Source: Arcobacter sp.
GTDB taxonomy: Bacteria; Campylobacterota; Campylobacteria; Campylobacterales; Arcobacteraceae
Assembly (NCBI GenBank): GCA_965662175.1
Contig: CBFIGT010000032.1
Location: 1-20,637 of the forward strand
Direction of reading: 5' to 3'
Length of the DNA stretch: 20,637 bases
Part shown: in pieces, positions 6,001 to 12,000 of the stretch
Layout: the number at the start of each line of letters is the position of its first letter
How positions within the stretch are numbered: position 1 is the stretch's first letter
Position numbers: made by a program

Positions 6001-9000
6001 TTGATTATGTACCGGTGAGAATAGAAGATATTAAACATACAGATTTACTTATAGTAGTTGGTGCAAATATCGCTGAAGCCCATGTTGTTTATTTTAATAA
6101 AATAAAAAAAGAGTTAAAAAGAGGTCTTAAGCTAATTGTAATTGACCCAAGATATACAGAAACTGCAAAATATGCAGATTTATATCTACCCATTAATGTA
6201 GGAACTGACATAGACTTCTTTAATCTTGTAGCAAAAAGATTAATTGATGATGGAAAAATTGATTTAGATTATATTGAAAAATATGTAAATAATTTTGAAA
6301 CATTTAATAACAAATTTAAAAGAGTTGCCAAAACTAAGATGCTAAAAAGAACAGGTCTTTCTAAAGAGCAGTTTGAAGAGTTTATGAAAATATTTTATGA
6401 AAATGAAAATATAACAAGTGCTTGGACAATGGGTTTAAATCAAAGTGTTCAAGGTGTAGACAAAAATTTATCACTTATAAATATACATCTAATAACTGGA
6501 AAAATCAATAAAAAAGGAAATGGTCCTTTTTCACTTACAGGGCAACCAAATGCTATGGGAGGAAGAGAGGTAGGTGGATTGGCAACAACACTTGCTGTTC
6601 ATTTAGACTATGAAAAGGAATCCATTGAAAAAGTTGAAGAGTTTTGGAAAACAAAAGGAATTCCTACAAAATCTGGATTAACTGCAACTGAGATAGTAAA
6701 TGAAGCTTTAAAAGGAAATATTGAGATTTTAATTATTTGTCATACTGATCCAATTTATCACTTACCAAATAGACATAAAACAGAAAAGGCATTTAAAAAA
6801 ATACCTTTAATTATTGAAATTAATGCTTATAATGATTCTCAAACTTCAAAATTTGCACATATTCAACTTCCTGCTGCTCCTTGGGGTGAAAAAGAAGGAA
6901 CACAAACAAATATGGATAGAACAATTACTAGACAAGAAAAATTAACTAGAACTTCAATTGATTGTAAACCTGATTGGGAAATATTTAAACTTATTGCGCA
7001 AGAATTAGGTTTTAATAAAGAGTTTAATTATGATAATGTACATGATATTTTTAATGAATACAAAGAGATGACAAAACTAAGTGAAAATAAACATCTAAAT
7101 ATTTATGATATTGATAATCCAAAAGATTTATTTAATAGTGCTTTTGTTTGGGGAGAAAATCTATTTAAAGATAACCAGTATTTTACTCAAAACAAAAAAG
7201 CAAATCTATTTTTTGTAGAGAATAAAAAACTCTCAGAAGAGGTATCTGAAAAATATCCATTTATTTTAATCACAGGAAGAACTAGAGACCAATGGCATAG
7301 TGGAACAAAAACTGCCCATGTTGAAAAACTAAAAAAGTTTAAAGAGTTAGAATTTGTAGAAATAAATGAAAATGATGCCTTAAAATTAGAAATTGAGACA
7401 GGTGATTTTGTAGATATATCTACAAAAAGAGGAACCGTTTGTCTAAAAGCAATTGTTACAAAAGATATAAAAGAGAGTACAATTTTTATCCCTGTAACTG
7501 TAAAATCAATAAACTACTTAACTAATGATTTATTAGATCCCATCTCTAAAGAGCCTGATTATAATCATAGTGCAGCAACAATTATAAAACTCTACTAAAA
7601 TGTAAAATCATCATAATCTGTATATTTTTTATACAGATTATGATGATTTTACATACTATTTAATGCTAAAATTTCTTTAATACTTTAAGGAATTCTATAT
7701 GAGCATTAATAATACAACACCACTTGATAGTTTTATCAACCATAAATCAGAGACTAATATGCAATGTGGTAACTATTCAATTGATATACCAAAGCCTAAA
7801 GAGGGAGAACAATATAGATTCCATTTTGATGCAACTGCTTGTGTTGGTTGTCACTGTTGTGAAGTTGCTTGTAATGAACAAAATGGAAATAGCGCTGATA
7901 TAAAATGGAGAAGAGTAGGTGAAACACAAAGTGGGATTTTTCCAAATGTTTCTAATCACTTTAACTCTATGTCTTGTAATCACTGTATTGATCCTGAGTG
8001 TTTAAAAGGCTGTCCTACTGAATCTTATATAAAATTTGATAATGGTATTGTATTTCATGATGATGATACTTGTATTGGTTGTCAATACTGTACTTGGAAT
8101 TGTCCATATGAAGTTCCTGTATTTAATGAGGATAGAGGAATAGTTACAAAATGTCATATGTGTCATGAAAAACTAGATGTTGGACAAACACCAGCTTGTG
8201 TACAAGCTTGTCCTGCTGGTGCTATTGCAATTGAAATTGTAAATACTCAAGAGTGGTTAGATGAGGGAATGAATAAAGAAGGAATTGCTCCACATTTACC
8301 CGATACTGATATTACAAAACCAACAACTAGATATACAATAAATGAAGATGAAAAAAATGCAAAAGTAACTCCTGCTGATGCTCATATAATCAAAGCTAAT
8401 CATCCTGAATGGCCTTTAGTGTTTATGACTGTTTTAACACAAATTTCATTTGGTGGTTTTGCAGCACTTACTCTTGGAGAGTTTGTAAATTTAATCGGAT
8501 TTAATCTAGCTATGCCAAATATTTGGATGATGATAGCAATATTTTTACCAGCTGCAATTGGACTTCCTCTATCAGCACTTCATTTAGGACGTCCTATTTT
8601 AGCTCATACAGCTATGAAAAATATAAAAACTTCTTGGTTAAGTAGAGAAGCTTTAGCCTTAGGAGTTTATACTTTTGGATTAACACTTCTTATTGCAATA
8701 TTCTATTTTGAAATTTCACAAGTATTTAGATTTATAGTCGAACTTGCTGTTTTAGGAGTTGGAATTTACGGTATTTATGCACAATCTATGATTTATAGAA
8801 TTAAAGCTAGACCTTCATGGAATAAAAAAGAGACAACAAAAATATTTTTCTATGTTTCATATATAGGTTTACTTCTTGTTAGTTTTATATTGGTTTTAAA
8901 TGAGTATTACTCAACGGCATCTGTATTATTACCATTTGCTCTATTTATTGCTTATTTTCAACTTGAAGAATCAAATAAACAAAATAGTTTTTATAAGAAT

Positions 9001-12000
9001 TTAAAAGAAGATGATAAAAACTTTTATCAATTAAATAAGACAAAAACTTTATATGAGAAAAACTTTACAAAAGAGAATGACTTTAGAAAAAGGTCATTAA
9101 TAATTGGTGGAATTGCTTTACCACTATTGGCTATGTTACTACTTGCTAGTTCAAATTACTCTAGCGTTGTGACGGTTTTAGTACTCTCTATTATAGTTTC
9201 ATTTTCAAGTGAAATTATTTCAAGAGTATTATTTTATAAAACAGCAGTTGCACTTGGACTTGCTGGTAACTTTTTTGCGGGGAATCAAAGATGATAAATA
9301 AAATAAAAAACTTTCTAGGTGTAGATATAAAAAATGAAAAGTATTCATTAGTTGATGATGCAAAGTTTGGAAAAGTAGCAAAACAAAAAGCTCCTACTTC
9401 ATGGGTTAGAAGTACTTGTGGATATTGTGGAGTTGGTTGTGGTTTATATATTGGGGTAAAAGAGGGAAAAGCTGTTTATACAAAAGGTGATCCAGCTCAC
9501 CCTGTAAATATGGGAACACTTTGTCCAAAAGGTTTAAGTGAACATGATATGGTTCAAAGTGATAATAGACTTACAAAACCACTTATTAGAAAAAATGCTC
9601 AATTACAAGATTCAACTTGGGAAGAAGTTTTTAAAACTACAAGTGATAGATTTAAAGCTATTCAAAATGAACATGGAAATCAAGCAATTGCTTGTATCTC
9701 AACTGGTCAGCTTTTAACTGAAGAGTTTTATACTTTAGGTAAATTTGTACAAATGGGACTTAAAACAAATAACTATGATGGTAATACAACACTTTGTATG
9801 GCAAGTGCTGTTATGGGTTATAAACAAACCTTTGGTAGTGATGGCCCAGTTGGGAGTTATGAAGATTTTTCATATGCAGATACTATTATGTTAATTGGTG
9901 CAAATATTGCTGATAATCATCCTATTTTAAAACTTCATATTGCAAAAAATCAAAAGATTACTGGTAAAAAACCAACTATTATCGTAATTGATCCAAGGTT
10001 TTCAAAAACAGCAAAAATGGCAGATATTTTTGTTCCTATAAAACCAAGAAGTGATTTGGCACTTATGAATGGACTTTGTCATATTATTTTAGAGCAAGGT
10101 TGGGAAGATGAGAAATTTATAAAAAGTAGAACTACTGGTTATAAAGAGTTTAGAAAACATATTATGGAAAATTATAAACCACAAGATGTAGCAAATATTA
10201 CGGGTATTGATGTAAAAGATTTATACCAATTAGCTAAGGTTTATGCACAATCACCTGCTGCTATGAGTGCTTGGACTATGGGAGTAAATCAAAGCTCTAT
10301 TGGAACAGATACTGTAAGTGCTATTTGTAACCTTGCTCTTATAACTGGAAATTTAGGAAGAAAAGGTGCAACAGCACTTTCTATCACAGGACAGTGTAAT
10401 GCTATGGGTACAAGAGAAACAGGCTTTACCTCATCAATTCCAGGGTATAGAAACTTTGCAAACGCTTATGATAGAGAAGAGTATGCAACCATTGCAAATG
10501 TTCCCCTTGATGATGTTCCAACTGCACGAGGTTATTCTTATCCTCAAATAATTGATGCAATTGAAAGAGGCGAAATAAAAGCTTTATGGTTAGTTGCAAC
10601 TAATCCTCTTGTATCATTTCCTGATCAAAAAAAGCTTAGACGAGCTCTGAGAAAACTTGATTTACTTGTAGTTCAAGATGCTTTTAAAAGTGAAACAGCT
10701 CAAATAGCTGATGTTGTTTTTTCTGCTGCTACATGGAGTGAAAAAGAGGGAACTTATACAAATAGTGAAAGAAGATGTAATTATGCTAAAAAAGCAGTTG
10801 AACCACTAGGAGATACAAAAAGTGATTTTGATATTATCTTAGAGTTTTCAAAATATTTTGGAGTAAAAGATAGTTTGTATCCTAATTGGAGTGAGCCTAG
10901 AGATGCTTTTAATGAATGGAAAAAATTAAGTGATGGAAGACTTTGTGATTATACTGGTATGACTTATGAATTAATTGAAGAGTTAGGTGGTATTCAATGG
11001 CCATGTAATAGTAAAAATCCAAAAGGAACACCAAGACTTTATAGTGAAGATATGCCTTGCCCAACAGCTGATGGTAAAGCAAATCTTTTAGCTCTTGATT
11101 GGTTACCTTTAAGTGAGTCTTGTAATACTAATTTCCCACTTATTTTAAATACAGGTAGAACAGTTGAACAATGGCATACAAGAACAAAAACAAAAACTAT
11201 CTCTATTTTAAATGATTTAGCTCCAGAAGCTTGGATTGAGATAAACCCAAGTGATGCTAAAAAACTAGAAGTAAGTAGTGGTGATAGACTAGATATCTCA
11301 TCAACTAGAGGAAAAATAAAAGATGTAATAGTAAGAGAGTCACAAAATGTTAGACCTGGCTCTATTTTTGTACCATTTCATTTTAATGAGCAATTAATAA
11401 ATACAATCACAATAGCTGATTTTGATCCAAAATCTTTTGAGCCAAACTATAAACAGTGTGCAGTTCAACTTCATAGTAAAAAAGTTCCAAATGGAATAGT
11501 TGTAAAAGAGAGAGAAATAGTAGGTGAGTTAGAGCATATAGTAATCATGAATGAATCCATAAAACTAGATGATATTTTAATAAAAAATAAAATATCAGAA
11601 TAATCATTTAACCTAATTCCAAAGCTCTTGCTTTGGAATGCATATTTGTATAAAAAAAATATTGAAGAATTATTTTAACCTATACCCTATACCAGAAACA
11701 TTTATAACATAATTTTGACCTAATTTTTTTCGTAAATCTCTAACAACACTTCTAATTGCACTTGAACTCATAAAATTATTTCCCCAAACTTGATACTCTA
11801 TCTCTTCATAAGATACTGTTTTATTCTCATCATTTACTAAAAGTTTTAATAAAAGTAACTCTTTTTTATTTAAGTGCAACTCTTCATTATTAATAATTAC
11901 ACTACTTTTATCAAAATCAATCTTTATACTCTTTTCAAGTTGTAAAACTTGGGGTAAAAGTTCATCAGTTTTTTTTAAAAATGCTTCAAATACTTCAAAT

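Follow-up and report, generated by a model that had tools for sequence, protein, structure and literature searches.

The window, i.e., the whole stretch of DNA analysed (20,637 nucleotides of Arcobacter sp., contig CBFIGT010000032.1), carries a nitrate assimilation locus in which a conventional nitrate reductase gene is followed by the genes of a DmsB-DmsC fusion protein and of a molybdenum (Mo) subunit (Table 1). Both open reading frames sit where the genome-wide survey's note had placed them, overlapping by 4 nt, and the layout of the locus is as described there, except that nirB is interrupted by a TAA codon and the gene of the ABC nitrate-binding protein is split by an IS200 element. Because of this stop and this insertion, the nitrate assimilation pathway could be decaying in the strain; the nirB stop is read from this assembly, the contigs of four related sequencing runs being too divergent and fragmentary for a comparison.

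Table 1. Genes and sites of the nitrate locus (positions in the window)
Feature	Position	Strand	Remarks
NrtA-type nitrate-binding protein gene	290..2256	-	first ~20 codons (about 2256-2197) split off by IS200 tnpA (1697-2143)
NarK-type nitrate/nitrite MFS transporter	2574..3854	+	exact boxes at 2333 and 2494
PP2C phosphatase-Ser/Thr kinase fusion	3873..5498	+	often accompanies narK in Campylobacterota loci
Second, conventional nitrate reductase of the NarB/NasA clade	5586..7598	+	lacks an additional C-terminal domain; box of its own at 5500-5516 (1 mismatch); missing from most fusion loci
Palindromic nitrogen box TGTATA-N5-TATACA	7619..7635	.	exact; 80 nt upstream of fusion start; centre of 25-bp perfect inverted repeat (7600-7654); -10-like TAAAAT 31 nt downstream
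DmsB-DmsC fusion	7699..9294	+	531 aa; domain with four [4Fe-4S] clusters at residues ~38-225; NrfD/DmsC-type anchor of eight helices at ~236-514, predicted inverted (Fe-S side cytoplasmic)
Mo-bisPGD catalytic subunit, Tat-less	9291..11603	+	770 aa; FS0 cysteines 43/46/50/78; Mo ligand C169-M170; TGQCNAMG as clade signature; forms a separate clade next to NasA/NarB and NapA
Formate/nitrite channel	14032..14865	+	exact box at 13931
NirB nitrite reductase large subunit	16741..19203	+	in-frame TAA 18928-18930, frame continues to about 19203; exact box at 16659
NirD Rieske subunit	19204..19512	+	-

The fusion protein and its orientation in the membrane

The domain matches of the 531-aa protein (Fer4_11 at residues 87-178, DmsC at 235-513) bear out the fusion architecture proposed earlier, and the seven to eight helices then assigned to it are eight in the predicted structure (mean pLDDT 91.6). 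Four cysteine groups correspond to four [4Fe-4S] clusters. The reported similarity to E. coli DmsB holds as well, with a value of 37% (residues 38-208) instead of 38%, and E. coli DmsC matches the anchor at 28% over 152 residues. In a fold search the anchor adopts the PsrC/ActC fold (Z 19.5, rmsd 3.6, 243 residues aligned; Z 23.3, rmsd 2.9, 276 aligned). The sequence and fold searches listed no solved structure that combines the two domains in a single chain, which does not by itself prove absence. Apparent "triple fusions" of 1,100-1,200 aa were rejected as ORF-calling artefacts, both parts sharing one frame in 0 loci.

Residues H295, S312, and E317 of the fusion are the equivalents of E. coli DmsC H65, S82, and E87, reported to be necessary for quinol oxidation or binding (PMC8076601). 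Each of the three is retained in 99% of 161 anchors, and menaquinone-pathway genes are present in the host genome. This conservation favours the earlier suggestion that the pair draws electrons from menaquinol, and from it we infer that quinol is the donor. A mere tether would not need these residues, which makes it improbable that the electrons come from a soluble donor, namely ferredoxin, flavodoxin, or NADH through NirB/NirD or a CysJ-like flavoprotein. Cyanobacterial NarB does require a low-potential donor, and NirB or a CysJ-like flavoprotein is encoded in many loci; however, the pair accompanies NirA, NirB, or the flavoprotein alike, and none of them is constant, the constant partner being the quinol-type anchor.

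As for the side of the membrane, the survey's note had argued for the cytoplasm from the missing signal sequences. Neither protein contains RR or RK within its first 60 residues, whereas NapA of the same genome carries a twin-arginine motif, and a Tat motif was found in 0 of 84 N-termini of partner Mo subunits with a pattern that recovered four of five positive controls. A charge bias can now be added to these observations. In fact, the fusion anchor has 21 lysine and arginine residues on its Fe-S side and 0 on the opposite one; the Fe-S side is the richer one in 161 of 161 related anchors (mean 16.6 vs. 2.4), and the sign is the same in all 109 distant relatives. Three control DmsC proteins with Tat-bearing partners have the reversed bias (Fe-S side/other side 4/8, 6/10, and 5/9), and a SoeC-like control anchor, from a locus (L134) classed as SoeABC-like by our own reading and not by annotation, shares that of the fusion (16/0). 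The periplasm is the usual side for NrfD-type anchors (PMC8076601), and the complex could face it too by an unrecognised export route; yet the uniform charge bias with controls of both signs, the lack of Tat motifs in the partners, and the co-located importers, which imply a cytoplasmic site, render this extremely improbable.

The predicted complex of the two proteins scored 0.89 vs. 0.00 for the best control, in a comparison from which the adjoining NarB was absent and which therefore says nothing on the preferred Mo subunit. The mark applied to this score is reached by 116 of 157 solved pairs and by 2 of 215 mismatched pairs, and in the complex runs at least 71% of the contacts agreed, with a partner pLDDT of at least 79. 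The model suggests that the two proteins form a complex; its score may merely mirror a resemblance to the solved PsrAB, FdnGH, and ArrAB.

The catalytic subunit and its substrate

The Molybdop_Fe4S4, Molybdopterin, and Molydop_binding domains of the 770-aa protein, as well as its 31% match to the adjoining NarB over 700 aa, were reproduced. The traits of the Nas/Nap lineage, i.e., C169-M170, Q368 of GQxNA, and the FS0 cysteines C43/46/50/78 with K80 after them, are present in it and in 85 of 85 partners. All 85 partner subunits also combine Cys-Met with TGQCNAMG, whereas formate dehydrogenases have Cys-His and RGQNN; the FdhF/FdhA signature (Cys/Sec-His and the Arg of RGQNN) is missing from the 770-aa subunit. 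Two positions usually conserved in Nap and Nas are changed: Cys replaces the Pro of GQPNA in 85 of 85 partners, and 69 of the 85 have Thr in place of the Arg two residues ahead of the Mo ligand.

The top profile score was that of the formate dehydrogenase alpha subunit (602 bits, below the cut-off of 666). The scores also stayed below the NasC and NasA_Halo cut-offs (534 of 1100 bits with the NasC profile and a further 506 of 1000), and amounted to 430 of 930 bits for NapA and 147 of 778 for dmsA_ynfE. Among solved structures the top scores belong to formate dehydrogenases, with full-length matches to nitrate reductases, while a SoeA-like control matches at 29% in the first 250 residues only. 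In a tree of 29 out of 54 rows (13 of the 29 are references; the rows set aside are 23 members of the clade and two references on long branches), the partner subunits form their own clade (support 98/98), distinct from the NasA/NarB clade (97/99) and apart from NapA; a quick tree likewise sets the 770-aa enzyme on a separate branch. The earlier designation "NarB-like" is imprecise, as the enzyme has a clade of its own.

The choice between nitrate and formate had been left open in the survey's note. Formate is disfavoured because the active site is of the Cys-Met type, with neither the catalytic His nor RGQNN, and the residues point to nitrate as the substrate; the two departures from Nap and Nas make another oxyanion conceivable. 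It is quite improbable that the subunit acts under nitrogen control on formate, chlorate, selenate, or an N-oxide, or passes electrons from a substrate to quinone as SoeABC does. Such a role would fit the best profile and structure scores and the two changes that set the clade apart close to the active site, but not the missing formate dehydrogenase residues, the clustering with nitrate reductases instead of Fdh, or the weak, N-terminal similarity to the SoeA-like control. Moreover, the pair is exchanged with NarB at one locus, two genomes of one genus having either NarB (G289) or the pair (G297) in the slot after nirA, and it is the only Nas/Nap-type match found in G301 and G305.

Neighbourhoods, nitrogen box, and proposed role

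The pair was found under ten phylum labels, mostly adjoining NirA/NirB and nitrate transporters. A same-strand Mo partner accompanies 85 of 100 fusion loci and, outside Campylobacterota, 48 of 53, the remaining five being cut by contig ends; among the 51 loci whose flanks reach 8 kb in either direction, 47 have a nitrite reductase or a nitrate transporter and four have neither. The fusion is present in 29 of 301 genomes (with NirA in 27 and NirB in two), and the 42 sampled NirA-bearing Campylobacterota genomes contain the fusion in 27 cases, NarB in 11, and both in none, counts that come from kin genomes, are not independent, and in the comparison of NarB with the fusion rest on only three candidates scored per genome.

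The box upstream of the fusion is a new observation, going beyond the earlier note. It is common to the upstream regions of glnA (identified by a family match of the full gene, a short GlnA fragment matching no family), two amt genes, urtA, nifA, narK, and nirB. Genome-wide, 15 exact copies were counted vs. 0.4 expected, 12 of them preceding nitrogen genes and none preceding napA, fdh, or psrA in the host. In the family loci the box lies upstream of the fusion in six of six cases where the fusion opens its own unit and in none of six where it directly follows nirA. A clear box is limited to Arcobacteraceae: among 43 regions upstream of Campylobacterota fusions, 3 carry it with at most one mismatch. 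The inverted repeat around it was considered as a terminator and rejected, its core being the box itself. Neither sigma54 signals (12 matches vs. 9.1 expected) nor a generic sigma70 scan (60 vs. 71.6) rose above chance. Since the box is shared with these nitrogen genes but not with napA, its sequence places the pair within the nitrogen-scavenging regulon, where it would act in transcriptional control.

Quinol-linked Mo enzymes usually have a respiratory role. Hence, a quinol-fed cytoplasmic nitrate reductase might be mainly dissimilatory, working as an excess-quinol valve or in weak nitrate respiration, with assimilation secondary. NarB stands next door in 4 of 12 family loci, the pair not always being its substitute, and a matching operon has been listed under anaerobic respiration in a strain positive for API nitrate reduction, though this strain reportedly has NrfAH (PMC6995999). 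We nevertheless consider a mainly dissimilatory function unlikely in view of the distribution of the box, the assimilatory NirA/NirB among the neighbours, and the separate NapA of the host. The assimilatory role assumed in the earlier note gains from the nitrogen-gene neighbourhoods, the replacement of NarB, and the shared box alike.

The pair is thus probably a two-polypeptide menaquinol:nitrate oxidoreductase of the cytoplasmic membrane face, responsible for the initial step in nitrate assimilation. At low fixed nitrogen, the common upstream box would switch on its transcription along with that of glnA, amt, urt, and nif. Nitrate would be imported through NarK or the ABC transporter, and the inverted anchor would oxidise menaquinol near the cytoplasm, at its H295/S312/E317 site; the electrons would then run along the fused domain's four clusters and through FS0 to the Cys-ligated Mo centre, and the nitrite would be passed on to NirB/NirD or NirA. 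As quinol and substrate would both react on one side of the membrane, no charge should be moved by the complex itself, and the benefit for chemolithotrophs would be the spending of cheap quinol instead of energetically costly ferredoxin or NADH.

Judging from the genes, what is encoded is most likely a quinol-fed nitrate reductase fixed to the inner membrane face, an apparently uncharacterised route to nitrate nitrogen for many environmental bacteria. A wider proposal, to which we give an even chance, is that the assimilatory nitrate reductases of bacteria include a third, monophyletic class, which occurs in no fewer than ten phyla from soils, sediments, and vents and is powered directly from the menaquinol pool via an upside-down DmsC anchor fused to its Fe-S wire; among free-living Campylobacterota it would be the commonest enzyme of nitrate assimilation, controlled there by an undescribed nitrogen regulator, NtrC-like and of the sigma70 type, whose gene lies before glnD. 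If true, this membrane form would link nitrogen uptake to the respiratory chain, spare autotrophs dependent on reverse electron flow some of their low-potential electrons, account for nitrate use by many Campylobacterota, Acidobacteriota, Planctomycetota, and Verrucomicrobiota, and correct the labels DMSO reductase, NapA, and formate dehydrogenase that skew nitrogen-cycle counts in metagenomes. TGQCNAMG together with the fusion would offer a clean marker for the family, and the box with the candidate regulator would make nitrogen control in Campylobacterota directly testable.

Comparison with known systems

The novelty claimed earlier for the quinol-fed route needs narrowing: the route is apparently uncharacterised, but an inverted, cytoplasm-facing anchor of the DmsC family is not new, being already known from SoeC, and the arrangement has been mentioned once, as NapA (PMC8076601; PMC6995999). 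SoeABC shares with the pair a Tat-less Mo subunit, a four-cluster subunit, and an inverted anchor with the His65 site (PMC8076601), and differs in its three separate genes, B and C being fused here; the present Mo subunit is of the Nas/Nap lineage, only weakly similar to the SoeA-like control, and is predicted to pass electrons from quinol to the substrate within a nitrogen locus. The operon of Lacipirellula parvula PX69 is described as encoding a Mo subunit and a fusion of an iron-sulfur subunit with an NrfD-like membrane subunit; NarK and an assimilatory nitrite reductase are encoded nearby (PMC6995999). From this description it would belong to the family, resembling its Pirellulales loci (L120-L130), but it was named NapA and treated in two sentences, without topology, donor, or distribution. 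The papers on Methylacidiphilum and Methylacidimicrobium, consulted for expression evidence, offered no link to the fusion family; the figure given there for the AP8 enzyme against B. subtilis NasC is 44%.

The pair resembles E. coli DmsABC and Thermus PsrABC in the DmsB and DmsC similarities, the H65/S82/E87 equivalents, and the PsrC/ActC fold, but here the anchor appears inverted, the Tat signal is missing, the B and C parts are fused, and the catalytic subunit is Cys-ligated and of the nitrate type. NarGHI is also quinol-fed and cytoplasm-facing, with an Asp-ligated NarG and a dihaem NarI; it is electrogenic and has no DmsC anchor. NapA has a related catalytic fold and quinol as its ultimate donor, but is Tat-exported and receives electrons through NapB/C or NapGH, with no DmsC anchor. 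Finally, textbooks class assimilatory nitrate reductases as soluble enzymes dependent on either ferredoxin/flavodoxin or NADH. The pair resembles NarB, NasA, and NasC in its predicted cytoplasmic location, single FS0 cluster, Cys-Met Mo site, and assimilation locus, in being swappable with NarB at one locus and, at the sequence level, in the nitrite reductase and nitrate transporter encoded beside it and in the nitrogen box. It differs from them in its separate clade, its scores under the NasC and NasA_Halo cut-offs, the lack of a fused BFD or flavin domain, and its predicted partner, which is a quinol anchor in the membrane where those enzymes have ferredoxin, flavodoxin, or an NADH diaphorase.

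Gene pair, distribution and neighbourhood

To judge from its sequence, the pair formed by the DmsB-DmsC fusion and its Mo-bisPGD partner (the Mo subunit) is probably a cytoplasm-facing menaquinol:nitrate oxidoreductase of assimilation, which would pass electrons from menaquinol to nitrate at the cytoplasmic face as the first assimilatory step, would itself move no net charge (electroneutral), and would be switched on by nitrogen shortage. Both genes are intact in this assembly. Their coordinates and 4-base overlap, reported in the genome-wide survey's note, were borne out, as was by domain search the joining of a DmsB-type iron-sulfur protein to a DmsC anchor; four Cys groups were counted in the fusion. 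The claimed likeness to DmsB stood, with a match to E. coli DmsB, at 37% identity over residues 38-208 instead of 38%, and E. coli DmsC is matched at 28% identity across 152 residues. The predicted structure of the fusion (mean pLDDT 91.6) has a DmsB-like domain and eight membrane helices, and by fold comparison resembles ActC (Z 23.3, rmsd 2.9, 276 aligned) and PsrC (Z 19.5, rmsd 3.6, 243 aligned). The Mo subunit shares 31% identity with the adjoining NarB, as the note had it. Among the matches listed, the closest relatives with a name are proteins from Arcobacter and Halarcobacter (75-81%), by which the host is most likely one of the Arcobacteraceae.

Coordinates of the features discussed (window positions unless a contig, C, or sampled locus, L, is named; G000 is the genome of the window)
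Feature	Location	Basis or description
DmsB-DmsC fusion gene	7699-9294	ORF; four-cluster ferredoxin domain joined to DmsC anchor
Mo-bisPGD subunit gene	9291-11603	ORF; domain matches
Box copies, window	2333, 2494, 5500, 7619, 13931, 16659	
Box copies, G000	C16:8936, C54:702/2489/2541, C56:8210, C104:5272, C140:5151, C157:3280	
NtrC-like 250-aa protein	L176:254-1006 (G000 C94)	degenerate AAA+ domain and Fis-type HTH, without receiver domain
Mannosyl/glucosyl-3-phosphoglycerate phosphatase gene	L174:271-1062 (G000 C12)	exact box
In-frame TAA in nirB	18928-18930	
Region of nrtA with the IS200 tnpA	1616-2256	
PP2C phosphatase-Ser/Thr kinase fusions	3873-5498; 14917-16626	directly behind NarK and nitrite channel, respectively
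Two-component pair	11670-13749	opposite strand; flanked by the pair and the nitrite channel; Tll0287-like sensor domain
NirA, then CysJ-like flavoprotein	L080:1946-3832; L120:15629-17239	Acidobacteriota; Planctomycetota

Of 301 Campylobacterota genomes sampled, 29 contain the full-length fusion, none of them among the 214 that belong to the two largest families. It is found in 12 of 61 genomes of the host's family and in 11 of 151 genomes of the phylum of Rhodopirellula baltica; in the best 80 loci from a scan of the genome collection, it occurs with its partner under at least ten phylum labels. These 80 and 20 of the 29 Campylobacterota loci made up a set of 100, where the Mo gene shares the fusion's strand in 85 and is no more than 600 nt away in 77. 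Of the 53 loci from outside Campylobacterota, 48 have it adjacent and five end at contig edges. Where 8 kb were available on both sides (n=51), a nitrite reductase was found in 44 loci and a nitrate transporter in 44 (one or both in 47, neither in 4). Eight NirA neighbours tested had NirA or ferredoxin-nitrite reductase as top models; five passed the NirA-family cut-off, while the three from Campylobacterota passed none. The CysJ-like flavoprotein that follows NirA in Acidobacteriota and Planctomycetota loci suggests an NADPH-fed nitrite reductase beside a quinol-fed nitrate reductase. Four loci (L037, L039, L041, L043) carry a haem-copper oxidase subunit I cluster immediately upstream of the fusion.

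Orientation, quinol site and substrate

Lys and Arg were counted per membrane side in 161 of 168 candidate anchors, aligned with four controls; the other seven were cut at a contig end, too short, or without the last Cys pattern. The window's anchor has 21 on the N-terminus/Fe-S side and 0 opposite, and the Fe-S side is the richer in all 161 (mean 16.6 versus 2.4), among them 109 of 109 distant anchors, a tally in which many rows are kin, so that their independence is overstated. The bias is reversed in three DmsC controls with twin-arginine partners (4/8, 6/10, 5/9), and runs as in the fusion family (16/0) in an unannotated SoeABC-like Rhizobium operon. A twin-arginine (Tat) pattern, which detects four of five positive controls, occurs in none of 84 Mo-subunit N-termini and in one of 97 fusion frames, there upstream of the likely start. 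With controls of both signs and Tat-less partners, the charge bias indicates that the anchor is inverted, in keeping with the cytoplasm-facing topology proposed earlier; a periplasmic complex is barely credible.

With potentials of about -74 mV for menaquinol and about +420 mV for nitrate, electron transfer from the first to the second is strongly downhill, and menaquinone-pathway genes are present in the genome. In the 161-anchor alignment, H295, S312 and E317 of the fusion, each conserved in 99% of anchors, correspond to H65, S82 and E87 of E. coli DmsC, where quinol oxidation or binding requires H65 and E87 and the pocket entry has S82 as a conserved residue (PMC8076601). That a soluble donor feeds the Mo subunit past a passive anchor is very unlikely. 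The predicted complex of Mo subunit and Fe-S domain scored 0.89 against 0.00 for the best control, which in such modelling shows likeness as opposed to binding, because like complexes (PsrAB, FdnGH, ArrAB) have already been solved; of 157 solved pairs, 116 attain the mark for this score, as do 2 of the 215 mismatched ones, and the runs had at least 71% contact agreement and a partner pLDDT of at least 79.

At the Mo ligand, the 85 Mo subunits found with a fusion all carry Cys-Met, and all contain TGQCNAMG; the formate dehydrogenases have Cys-His and RGQNN in these places. Relative to Desulfovibrio NapA, the positions D184, M330, Q368 and R375, which we take to be funnel and pocket residues, are mostly retained; departures specific to the clade are Cys for Pro (85/85) and Thr for Arg before the Mo ligand (69/85). 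The best profile is formate dehydrogenase (602 bits, below the 666 cut-off), and that of NasC gives 534 bits of a 1100 cut-off. These two substitutions and the top formate dehydrogenase score would count against a nitrate-type reading; action on another substrate is highly improbable. In the main tree (29 rows, Fdh root, few references), 16 fusion-linked Mo enzymes form one clade (support 98/98), apart from NasA/NarB (97/99, including the window's NarB) and from NapA, and a quick 54-row tree gave the same grouping. The pair as a putative quinol-fed assimilatory nitrate reductase is well supported at the sequence level.

A putative nitrogen box and other features of the window

At the centre of the inverted repeat that lies between narB and the fusion is TGTATA-N5-TATACA, the box. 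Hexamer counts predict 0.4 exact copies for the genome, which has 15; other spacers gave no copies with 2-4, 6, 7 or 9 nt and three with 8. In the window, five exact copies lie ahead of narK (two), the fusion, the nitrite channel and nirB (one each). Seven are upstream of the two amt genes, urtA, nifA, cowN, a TorF porin gene and the NtrC-like gene ahead of glnD, and the remaining three are followed by a phosphatase, a protein with a CheW domain or a contig end; glnA and narB are preceded by one-mismatch boxes. Only 25 of 1,887 ORFs scanned have the box at up to one mismatch, and napA, psrA and the two fdh genes are not among them. Sixteen sites were tested for a -10-like hexamer, and in 11 of them one begins 30-32 nt past the box. 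Of 12 host-family loci, all six in which the fusion opens its own unit have the box ahead of it, and none of the six in which it sits at most 42 nt after nirA does; in one genome (G065) it is nirA that the box precedes. Outside the family, 43 regions upstream of a fusion match poorly (up to one mismatch in three, two mismatches in eight). We infer that the box, which resembles an AT-rich NtrC site, marks a nitrogen regulon of glnA, amt, urtA, nifA, cowN and the nitrate genes; that the pair is mainly a dissimilatory valve is unlikely. A literature search on the box had no Arcobacter paper among the matches listed.

The NtrC-like protein is a candidate for binding the box. Its gene overlaps glnD, has the box 36 nt upstream, and in several genomes lies beside amt/PII or the nitrate locus; the protein was found in 80 of the 301 Campylobacterota genomes, one of these belonging to the two largest families (214 genomes). 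The mannosyl/glucosyl-3-phosphoglycerate phosphatase gene carries an exact box; glucosylglycerate is, in other bacteria, a solute of nitrogen limitation.

The stop in nirB shortens NirB to 729 aa, with about 90 further codons in frame beyond it, and is either a real mutation or an assembly error; the IS200 tnpA, single-copy in the assembly, lies within the signal-peptide part of nrtA, the ABC nitrate-binding gene. Because of these two lesions, the nitrate pathway may be impaired here. The PP2C-kinase fusions may control transport via phosphorylation; the one linked to NarK is found again in most of the Campylobacterota loci. The two-component pair is conserved within the genus and absent from most loci.

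Relation to NarB and to known systems

In the survey of NarB and partner across the 301 genomes, with three candidates scored per genome, a NarB orthologue (at least 55%) was found in 16, together with the fusion only in the host and G275. Partner-type matches occur in 28, every one with the fusion, the 29th fusion genome being cut at a contig end. The 42 genomes in which NirA reaches at least 40% have the fusion (27), NarB (11), another Nas-like gene (2) or none found (2), and NirA or NirB is present in 29/29 fusion genomes. Two members of one genus, G289 and G297, differ in what follows nirA, at a place flanked by narK and amt-PII: the former has NarB there, the latter the pair. The partner is the sole Nas/Nap-type match found in Rhodopirellula baltica and G305, and is accompanied by NapA in G302. 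What speaks against strict replacement of NarB by the pair is that narB stands directly upstream of the fusion in four of the 12 host-family loci.

In their accessible parts, PMC6650914 gives the Nas/Nap/Nar split only, and PMC3404531 and PMC7907005 (with supplement) hold nothing further on this enzyme. The one mention found, in a search that left subscription journals and bioRxiv supplements outside, is that of a Lacipirellula parvula operon in which a 'NapA' is accompanied by a fusion of an iron-sulfur subunit with an NrfD-like one, next to narK and an assimilatory nitrite reductase, in an account that, as far as accessible, is without topology or electron donor (PMC6995999). An inverted anchor was previously reported for SoeC (PMC8076601), with which the fusion's anchor would share its orientation.
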